From a virus (taxonomy: Duplodnaviria > Heunggongvirae > Uroviricota > Caudoviricetes), in IMG/VR virus record IMGVR_UViG_3300023174_000034: 64,000 nt of DNA; one strand, given 5' to 3'. Under the pieces are notes generated by a model. That model searched no databases, was not told the DNA's origin, and was given only the letters and a program-made list of their open reading frames with translations. Made by a program: the position numbers and the translations under genes. Position 1 is the stretch's first letter. Each line of letters starts with the position of its first letter. This document shows positions 15,794-16,878 of the stretch, piece after piece.

Positions 15794-16285
15794 ATGATAG
15801 AAGGTAAAAAAGTTGGCTTCACAGCCTCAACGTTTGATTTGCTACACGCAGGGCATATTGCCATGCTTCGTGAATCAAAACAAAAATGCGAGTACTTGAT
15901 TTGTGCTTTGCAAAACGATCCAACACTGGATCGTCCTAACAAAAATCGTCCTGTTCAGAGTGTTGTAGAACGACAACTGCAACTGGTAGGTTGCAAGTAT
16001 GTGGATGAAGTATGGGTCTACAACACAGAAAAGGATCTAGAAGATTTGCTTCTAGTGCTTCCAATTGATGTGCGTATCCTTGGTGTTGAATACGAAGGCA
16101 AAGAATTCACAGGTCGTGAAATCTGTCACAAACGAAACATTGATCTATACTTCAATGGGCGTGATCATAGTTTTTCTAGCAGTGAGCTACGCCAGCGTGT
16201 GGCCAATGCAGAAGATTTGAAAAAGAAACTACAGGCCTTTGAGCCAGTGGGTGCAGATGATACAGGTGGTCCTAGCCCACGATAA
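15794..16285 (+). CDS. cytidylyltransferase-family nucleotidyltransferase (TagD/HldE-C-like)
   Basis: FDLLHAGH (HxGH), RPVQSVVER, CKYVDEV, SSSELR; start ATG 15794. Confidence 0.85.
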   Translation: MIEGKKVGFTASTFDLLHAGHIAMLRESKQKCEYLICALQNDPTLDRPNKNRPVQSVVERQLQLVGCKYVDEVWVYNTEKDLEDLLLVLPIDVRILGVEYEGKEFTGREICHKRNIDLYFNGRDHSFSSSELRQRVANAEDLKKKLQAFEPVGADDTGGPSPR

Positions 16286-16295
16286 ATAATTCCCA

Positions 16296-16364
16296 AGCGG
16301 CCTTTTCTGGCATTCATCCCGCTATACAAACTCTGCAGGCCTATGCTATAATCTAACATAGGAG
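16296..16364 (+). ncRNA. candidate preQ1-I-like riboswitch with SD-sequestering hairpin upstream of queD
   Basis: P1 AGCGG/CCGCT, loop ending CATC, A-rich tail ATACAAAC; hairpin CCTATG/CATAGG covers the SD; alternative pairing GGCCT/AGGCC. Confidence 0.45.
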
Positions 16365-16371
16365 AAACAGC

Positions 16372-16878
16372 ATGTCAACACTACACCCAGTGGTATACAA
16401 ATACCAAAGCACCAAAGAGTATCATGACGCATTCCCATGCGCTTATCGTCAATGGAGAAGTGACAGTCATTGTAATCTAATACATGGCTACTCATTCTCA
16501 ATGAAGTTCTATTTTGGAACCAATGACCTAGACGTTCGCAACTGGGCCGCGGACTACGGTGGACTCAAAGAACTCAAGAAGATACTTGAAGATCAATTTG
16601 ATCATACTCTAATTGTAGCACAAGATGATCCAGAAATGGCCACATACAAGCTACTGCAAGAACGGAACATGGCCAAGGTTGTGGTTCTACCACGACTAGG
16701 TTGCGAAGGCCTAAGCGACATGCTGTACAAGTATGTGAATGGTGTGTACATTCCGGACATGTGGGGTCCAAGCGAAGCCGCCCGTTTATGGTGTTATCGT
16801 GTGGAAGTTCGAGAAACCCAAAGTAACATGGCTTTCCGTGAAGGTCATCGCGAATGGAATGAAAATCTACTTGACTAA
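16372..16878 (+). CDS. queD: 6-carboxy-5,6,7,8-tetrahydropterin synthase, copy 1
   Basis: CNLIHGYS, DYGGLK, FDH, GCEGL, VEVRET. Confidence 0.8.
   Translation: MSTLHPVVYKYQSTKEYHDAFPCAYRQWRSDSHCNLIHGYSFSMKFYFGTNDLDVRNWAADYGGLKELKKILEDQFDHTLIVAQDDPEMATYKLLQERNMAKVVVLPRLGCEGLSDMLYKYVNGVYIPDMWGPSEAARLWCYRVEVRETQSNMAFREGHREWNENLLD

Follow-up and report, generated by a model that had tools for sequence, protein, structure and literature searches.

A conserved pseudoknot in the leader of phage queD genes shares a strand with helices over the ribosome-binding site and is a candidate translational ON switch

Small pseudoknots that govern access to a ribosome-binding site are known from several riboswitches, among them SAM-II, SAM-V and preQ1-II, in which the SD sequence is hidden inside the pseudoknot and which are OFF switches; an ON switch on a biosynthetic gene is unusual. 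In the leader of T4 gene 32, the effector is a protein, gp32, which binds cooperatively to an unstructured stretch, with the leader pseudoknot nucleating this binding. Phage-encoded riboswitches for the phages' own pathways are rare, and we know of no riboswitch that controls a DNA-hypermodification pathway. The preQ1-I riboswitches (RF00522, types I-III) are characterized by an H-type fold whose P1 has five base pairs, by a cytosine just 5' of the P1 3' strand, and by an A-rich L3 (PMC11625349, PMC10622847). The leader of a QueD-like phage gene, located in a 64-kb stretch of DNA (the window), had been described from the sequence as resembling a variant preQ1-I aptamer followed by a switchable SD hairpin. 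The layout was borne out, as the leader forms an H-type pseudoknot arranged like that of preQ1-I, but membership of the family was not. Rfam gave no match at gathering score anywhere in the window (39 bits being the RF00522 score required for membership), and the covariance search that had been proposed returned no preQ1 family, including preQ1-II and preQ1-III, even when 351 or 57 bases around the leader were searched at E<=10; in a control run, the RF00522 model detects B. subtilis. We have filed the leader as a riboswitch-like variant, not as a preQ1-I member.

The leader lies in a gap of 86 bases (16286-16371), which separates a cytidylyltransferase-like ORF (stop codon TAA, 16283-85) from the QueD-like gene (Table 1), and every string named in the original prediction was recovered at its position by a sequence check. 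The surrounding gene cluster encodes FolE, two QueD-like proteins, a QueE-like protein, a PRTase, a cytidylyltransferase, a HIT protein, two epimerases, and a cupin. The two QueD-like paralogues stand in tandem (16372-17476), with a leader present on the first only. Elsewhere in the window, the ORF at 5417-7012 was matched by neither Pfam nor PHROG at the thresholds applied. The absence of preQ1 enzymes, noted from the outset, is consistent with our tblastn results, as neither the window nor any of 186 related loci bearing the motif, 64 of them 9 kb or longer, gave a QueC match with two phage QueC proteins as queries. Because QueC was not found, the pathway appears to end at CDG or a derivative, which makes preQ1 or preQ0 an odd effector. 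Our guesses at more natural ligands are CDG, 7-deazaguanine or guanine. The PRTase of the cluster (15232-15792) leaves open a route at the nucleotide level.

Table 1. Coordinates of the leader elements, promoter boxes, and downstream gene in the window
Feature	Position	Strand	Sequence or remark	Basis
ATAAATA box, candidate T4-late-like promoter element	16282-16288	+	ATAAATA	conserved 8-14 nt before P1 in window-type leaders
ATAAATA copies	16282-88, 20079-85, 24176-82	+	each just upstream of a same-strand ORF start	
ATAAATA copy	56042-48	-	just upstream of a same-strand ORF start	
P1 5' strand	16296-16300	+	AGCGG; pairs with 16319-23	covariation
L1	16301-16308	+	CCUUUUCU; opens with conserved NCU(U); length variable in relatives	alignments
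P2 5' strand	16309-16314	+	GGC(A)UU; A16312 bulged or mismatched	covariation with the strand after ..CUGC
L2	16315-16318	+	CAUC; with U16314 makes near-invariant UCAUC	alignments
P1 3' strand	16319-16323	+	CCGCU	covariation; RNAalifold
L3	16324-16336	+	AUACAAACUCUGC; A-rich part, then near-invariant UCUGC	consensus WWWAHAAAYUCYGC
P2 3' strand	16337-16341	+	AGGCC; CC (16340-41) also opens the anti-SD hairpin	covariation; accessibility model
Anti-SD hairpin	16340-16362	+	CCUAUG (16340-45) / CAUAGG (16357-62); covers AGG of the SD	RNAalifold, 50 window-type leaders
Extended -10, candidate internal promoter	16344-16352	+	TGCTATAAT; in the loop of the anti-SD hairpin	-35/-10 scan
SD and start codon of queD	16360-16374	+	AGGAG (16360-64); start codon 16372-74	sequence; ORF list
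QueD-like 6-carboxy/6-pyruvoyl-tetrahydropterin synthase	16372-16878	+		Pfam PTPS, 3.4e-14; PHROG 2389, 9e-35

Covariation across phage queD leaders, a check that had been suggested for the predicted P1, was run and supports this helix, which all 53 distinct leaders form (100% paired). Compensatory double changes are seen at three of the five pairs (exchanges AU/UA, GC/CG and CG/AU/UA), with no one-sided change at any of them. Among 122 aptamers, P1 comes in six types (AGCGG, AGAGG, UGCGG, ACCGG, AGUGG and AUCGG), each time facing their exact complement, and four of the minority types (ACCGG, AGAGG, AGUGG and AUCGG) are each found in at least two expression-platform classes. For the structure as a whole, the covariation score of 53 distinct aptamers was 0.317, compared with 0.120 +/- 0.014 after shuffling (0 of 500 shuffles reached the native value), and 86.6% of paired cells were filled in the native register versus 37-52% when partners were slid by 1-3 columns. 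Changes counted along a queD tree, 47 in P1 and 41 in leader class, were set aside because the tree does not follow the leaders, due to either poor resolution or recombination. Folding of the single sequence was no better than chance (MFE -14.2 kcal/mol versus -15.7 +/- 2.9 kcal/mol for shuffles, z +0.52).

P2 joins the bases just 5' of UCAUC with those just 3' of ..CUGC. The original prediction had paired CUGGCA of the loop with UGCAG of the tail; covariation instead backs GGC(A)UU (16309-14) with AGGCC (16337-41). The pairing score of P2 was 3.54 in native leaders versus 2.81 +/- 0.10 with permuted tails (z ~7), and the helix is formed among relatives by GGCAU/AUGUC, GGCAU/AUGCC, GACGC/GUGUC, GACGU/AUGUC, GACUU/AAGUC, GGCG/CGCC, GGCA/UGCC and GGCU/AGCC. 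The version in the window (G16309-C16341, G16310-C16340, C16311-G16339, A16312 bulged, U16313.G16338 and U16314-A16337) is among the less regular ones, with three base pairs, a bulged A, a U.G, and a U-A. A competing helix, GGCCU/AGGCC, which had been expected to disrupt the aptamer and the SD hairpin alike, can be formed in just 6 of 153 distinct leaders.

Conservation extends to the unpaired bases. While the loop closed by P1 varies from 13 to 19 nt across the 122 distinct aptamers (18 nt in the window, 16301-18, ending CATC), UCAUC is present in 111 of them with its last C invariant, and the base preceding the equivalent of this C (C16318) is U in 111/122 and A in 5/122. In preQ1-I types II and III, the specificity cytosine forms part of an AC motif. 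Invariant positions in alignment A2 include C9 and T10 in the L1 region and A, A, A, U, C, G and C in L3. The tail ATACAAAC, predicted from 16324 onward, is present, and its counterpart in relatives, WWWAHAAAYUCUGC, is nearly invariant. A covariance model derived from the aptamers scored 63.7 bits at 16294-16345 and detected no second copy of the motif in the window. A weak match to the model at 34073-34093 (11.2 bits), which begins inside an apparent short ORF, was attributed to chance; that ORF, itself unlisted, starts at ATG 34066 (window 34045-34200) downstream of a GTATAAT box. Nor did the model find the folE leader, which had been proposed to form a metabolite-sensing circuit together with the queD leader. 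A motif common to the two is not supported, and the folE leader (12916-12955) was rejected as an instance of the same element, as it carries a different small hairpin, AGUC-AUCCAC-GACU, followed by AACUCGGAG. The stem of this hairpin is kept in three related loci with changed pairs (AGCC/GGCU and GGUC/GACC).

The leader recurs among related loci. In IMG/VR, QueD proteins sharing 86-94% identity with that of the window turned up in more than 589 loci, and among the 80 loci fetched, the leader precedes queD in every one with enough upstream DNA. A scan of viral contigs for the leader pattern, blind to gene content, yielded 120 matches, comprising 113 with a perfect P1, 3 with one P1 mismatch, and 4 due to chance. 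The same pattern gave 121 matches in 185,579 prokaryote genomes, which is chance level, although two were genuine: one on a 5.5-kb contig of a metagenome bin, and the other ending at the edge of the stretch examined. The leader is absent from 50,697 isolate phage records, where blastn returned chance matches only. The nearest isolate QueD genes (Acidovorax ACP17, Dinoroseobacter R5C and Microcystis Me-ZS1) are likewise without it, because queD there abuts or overlaps the upstream gene. Overall, 187 instances of the motif, representing 122-125 distinct aptamers, were collected from uncultured phage contigs. A queD-like gene follows 184 of them (within 200 nt in 180 cases, and with an inserted ORF between in 4), the remaining three being followed by a contig edge or a homing endonuclease. 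QueD-like is the only gene class found behind the motif, and as the motif is restricted to a single gene family within a single lineage of uncultured phages, its genomic context gives no means of narrowing down the ligand. No published description of the element was found in a literature search.

Individual loci show rearrangements around the motif. Homing endonuclease genes of the GIY-YIG/NUMOD3 type are inserted at the queD leader in L074 (2190-2290) and L315 (around 4830-5000), and in L074 the promoter and P1 hairpin are duplicated before the inserted gene (26.8-bit partial match). L060 carries a diverged second copy (1882-1930, 34.7 bits) upstream of its regular queD leader and before a 309-aa methyltransferase-like ORF, with ACCAG/CUGGU or AGCAG/CUGGU as P1 and UCUGC changed to UUCGC. 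A different PTPS-like ORF lies directly 3' of the motif in L071 (2551 onward), where the usual queD follows 477 nt later.

Three classes of leader were distinguished (A, the window type, B and C), all of them with a helix that masks the ribosome-binding site and overlaps the 3' strand of P2. In class A, ..GCC-UAUG pairs with CAUAGG of the SD, while the helix lies over AUG-GCA in class B, where (AUG)UCAUUGUU pairs with AACAAUGGCA, and in class C, where UGUCRUC pairs with GAUGGCA. The SD hairpin that had been predicted, CCUAUG/CAUAGG, is kept in 70 of 75 class A leaders, and RNAalifold on 50 window-type leaders showed seven changed cells, all still paired via G.U. The anti-AUG helix of class C was also found by RNAalifold, with changes that are G.U-compatible only. 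GCA is the second codon in 26 of 27 class B leaders and in 38 of 43 class C leaders, but this codon is variable in class A, in agreement with what the anti-AUG pairing predicts. Comparative sequence analysis demonstrates the pseudoknot and shows it to be conserved, tied to queD, and overlapping a second helix with its P2 strand.

Modelled accessibilities suggest that this wiring is that of a translational ON switch. When the pseudoknot (P2) strand was blocked, predicted accessibility rose from 0.46 to 0.67 for the class A SD; for the AUG it went up from 0.01 to 0.43 (class B) and from 0.04 to 0.30 (class C). The ON logic is least clear for class A, to which the window belongs, because a weak UAUGCU/AGCAUG helix over the AUG could form in the bound state, lowering AUG accessibility in that model from 0.52 to 0.33. 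A 7-bp remnant able to cover the AUG is also still available in class B. Control by transcription termination was considered and is unlikely, because neither hairpin precedes a U-run.

The aptamer probably stands at the very start of its transcripts. Based on the ATAAATA box, transcription in the window would begin at ~16294-16295, 1-2 nt before P1. With four copies in the 64-kb window versus 8.4 expected by chance, each before a same-strand ORF start (Table 1), this is probably a phage (late-type) promoter box. TTGAC-N17-TGTATAAT is present in class B and in some class C leaders, whose start is placed 1-2 nt before P1 because the -10 sits at -13..-8 from P1. The original prediction had cautioned that an extended -10 within the leader could bypass the element, and this caveat stands. 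The candidate internal promoter, TATACA-N18-TATAAT with TG, has 10 of 12 matches in the -35/-10 scan, with TATACA at 16323-28 overlapping L3, and across class A a -35-like TATACA or TTTACA lies 18 nt upstream of a TGnTAnnnT box retained, with the kind of variation seen in promoters, by 71 of 75 leaders. A second start near 16359, bypassing the pseudoknot, is therefore plausible, and the conserved internal promoter may render the element dispensable for part of the transcripts.

We favour, with somewhat better than even confidence, the explanation that the queD leader is a cis-acting RNA switch consisting of a ligand-stabilised pseudoknot and an anti-RBS helix that shares one of its strands, acting in the ON direction. 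It shows structural hallmarks of a riboswitch, namely a conserved, covarying aptamer and an expression platform using one of the aptamer's own strands. In the proposed mechanism, an H-type pseudoknot would form at the extreme 5' end of the queD mRNA from P1 and P2, joined by L1, L2 and L3, and the 3' strand of P2 would be common to a second helix masking the ribosome-binding site, over the SD in the window and over AUG-GCA in the other two classes. We infer that a ligand is sensed, most likely a small guanine-like or 7-deazapurine-like molecule held by the invariant loop bases, and that its binding would stabilise the pseudoknot, deprive the anti-RBS helix of its strand, and allow queD to be translated. 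Any transcript started at the internal TGCTATAAT promoter would not be subject to this control. We also put forward, more tentatively, that the element is a phage-specific riboswitch class, derived from or convergent with preQ1-I, which senses a base of the DNA-hypermodification route (7-carboxy-7-deazaguanine, 7-deazaguanine, or base-exchange guanine) and turns queD on.

Several features would also suit a translational operator, in which a phage protein such as QueD or another protein of the pathway binds the pseudoknot at the 5' end and represses or activates translation: the single-stranded bases are near-invariant (UCAUC and AAAYUCUGC), the element is confined to one gene in one phage lineage, and leader pseudoknots serving phages as protein operators are known, as in T4 gene 32. 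We nonetheless regard such an operator as rather unlikely, since the motif has no candidate RNA-binding protein linked to it, three unrelated platforms share the switching-strand design, a recurrence typical of riboswitches, and the compact layout puts the conserved bases where preQ1-I holds its ligand (PMC11625349). The H-type pseudoknot, a 5-bp P1 ending GG/CC, the invariant C, the A-rich L3, and a queuosine-pathway gene downstream could also point to a true but divergent member of preQ1-I sensing preQ1 or preQ0 (PMC11625349, PMC10622847). This is very unlikely given the lack of a match to Rfam PreQ1, preQ1-II or preQ1-III on 57 bases at E<=10, an aptamer and an L3 (with its extra UCUGC) of different dimensions from those of preQ1-I, an SD outside P2, and loci that appear not to make preQ0 or preQ1, QueC having been found neither in the window nor in the 186 others.

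For mere stabilisation, a simple hairpin does not require 20 or more unpaired bases to be invariant, and the sharing of a strand with an anti-RBS helix arose in three platform classes. Both points argue against a constitutive element that senses nothing, protecting the mRNA 5' end or setting a fixed level of translation with the alternative helices being incidental; the pseudoknot's place at the predicted transcript 5' end and its modest folding energies would agree with such a role, which we consider improbable. That there is no RNA element at all, and that the conservation stems from promoters or operators acting as DNA signals, or from chance, might be suspected from the overlap of L3 with a -35-like hexamer and from the -10-like box in the class A hairpin loop. 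However, double compensatory changes keep P1 and P2 paired, G.U is tolerated on the queD-leader strand, and L3 is conserved to the same degree in classes B and C, in which the loop with the -10-like box is not seen. This last explanation is refuted by covariation, as far as sequence comparison can refute it, and we find it scarcely credible.

The RNA switch favoured here would be of interest in several respects. It provides a compact and well-supported aptamer candidate of ~50 nt, and a natural example of a preQ1-I-like architecture rewired as a predicted ON switch with three interchangeable expression platforms. It would also help to reveal when, and by what means, 7-deazaguanine synthesis is switched on in uncultured phages without QueC. 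Should the ligand be a base of the DNA-hypermodification route, the leader would be the first RNA sensor governing synthesis of a modified DNA base, and if it is a deazapurine, the RNA could be used as a sensor for such metabolites.

Among known systems, the T4 gene 32 leader likewise begins with a phage-encoded H-type pseudoknot through which translation of the following gene is governed, whereas the queD leader is distinguished by its invariant loop bases and by an anti-RBS helix mutually exclusive with the pseudoknot, with no RNA-binding protein linked to it. With SAM-II, SAM-V and preQ1-II it shares a small pseudoknot in which loop strands line the helices and whose formation decides access to the ribosome-binding site, although the consensus differs and their Rfam models do not match it. 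Differences from preQ1-I include a longer L1 (4-10 versus 2-3 nt), a 13-nt L3 with near-invariant UCUGC between the A-run and P2 (that of preQ1-I runs straight into P2), and a larger aptamer (46-52 versus about 30-36 nt). The SD lies 19 nt (window) to ~40 nt beyond P2 rather than within or next to it, the predicted direction is ON as opposed to the usual OFF, and the leader is found only in phages whose fetched loci show no QueC. Similarities to preQ1-I are nonetheless extensive, comprising an H-type pseudoknot with a loop-to-tail P2, a 5-bp P1 ending GG/CC, an A-rich start to L3 (WWWAHAAA), predicted translational control, and a downstream gene of the 7-deazaguanine (queuosine) pathway, here QueD-like. 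The invariant cytosine directly 5' of the P1 3' strand is shared as well, and by analogy C16318 would occupy the place of the preQ1-I specificity cytosine (PMC11625349).
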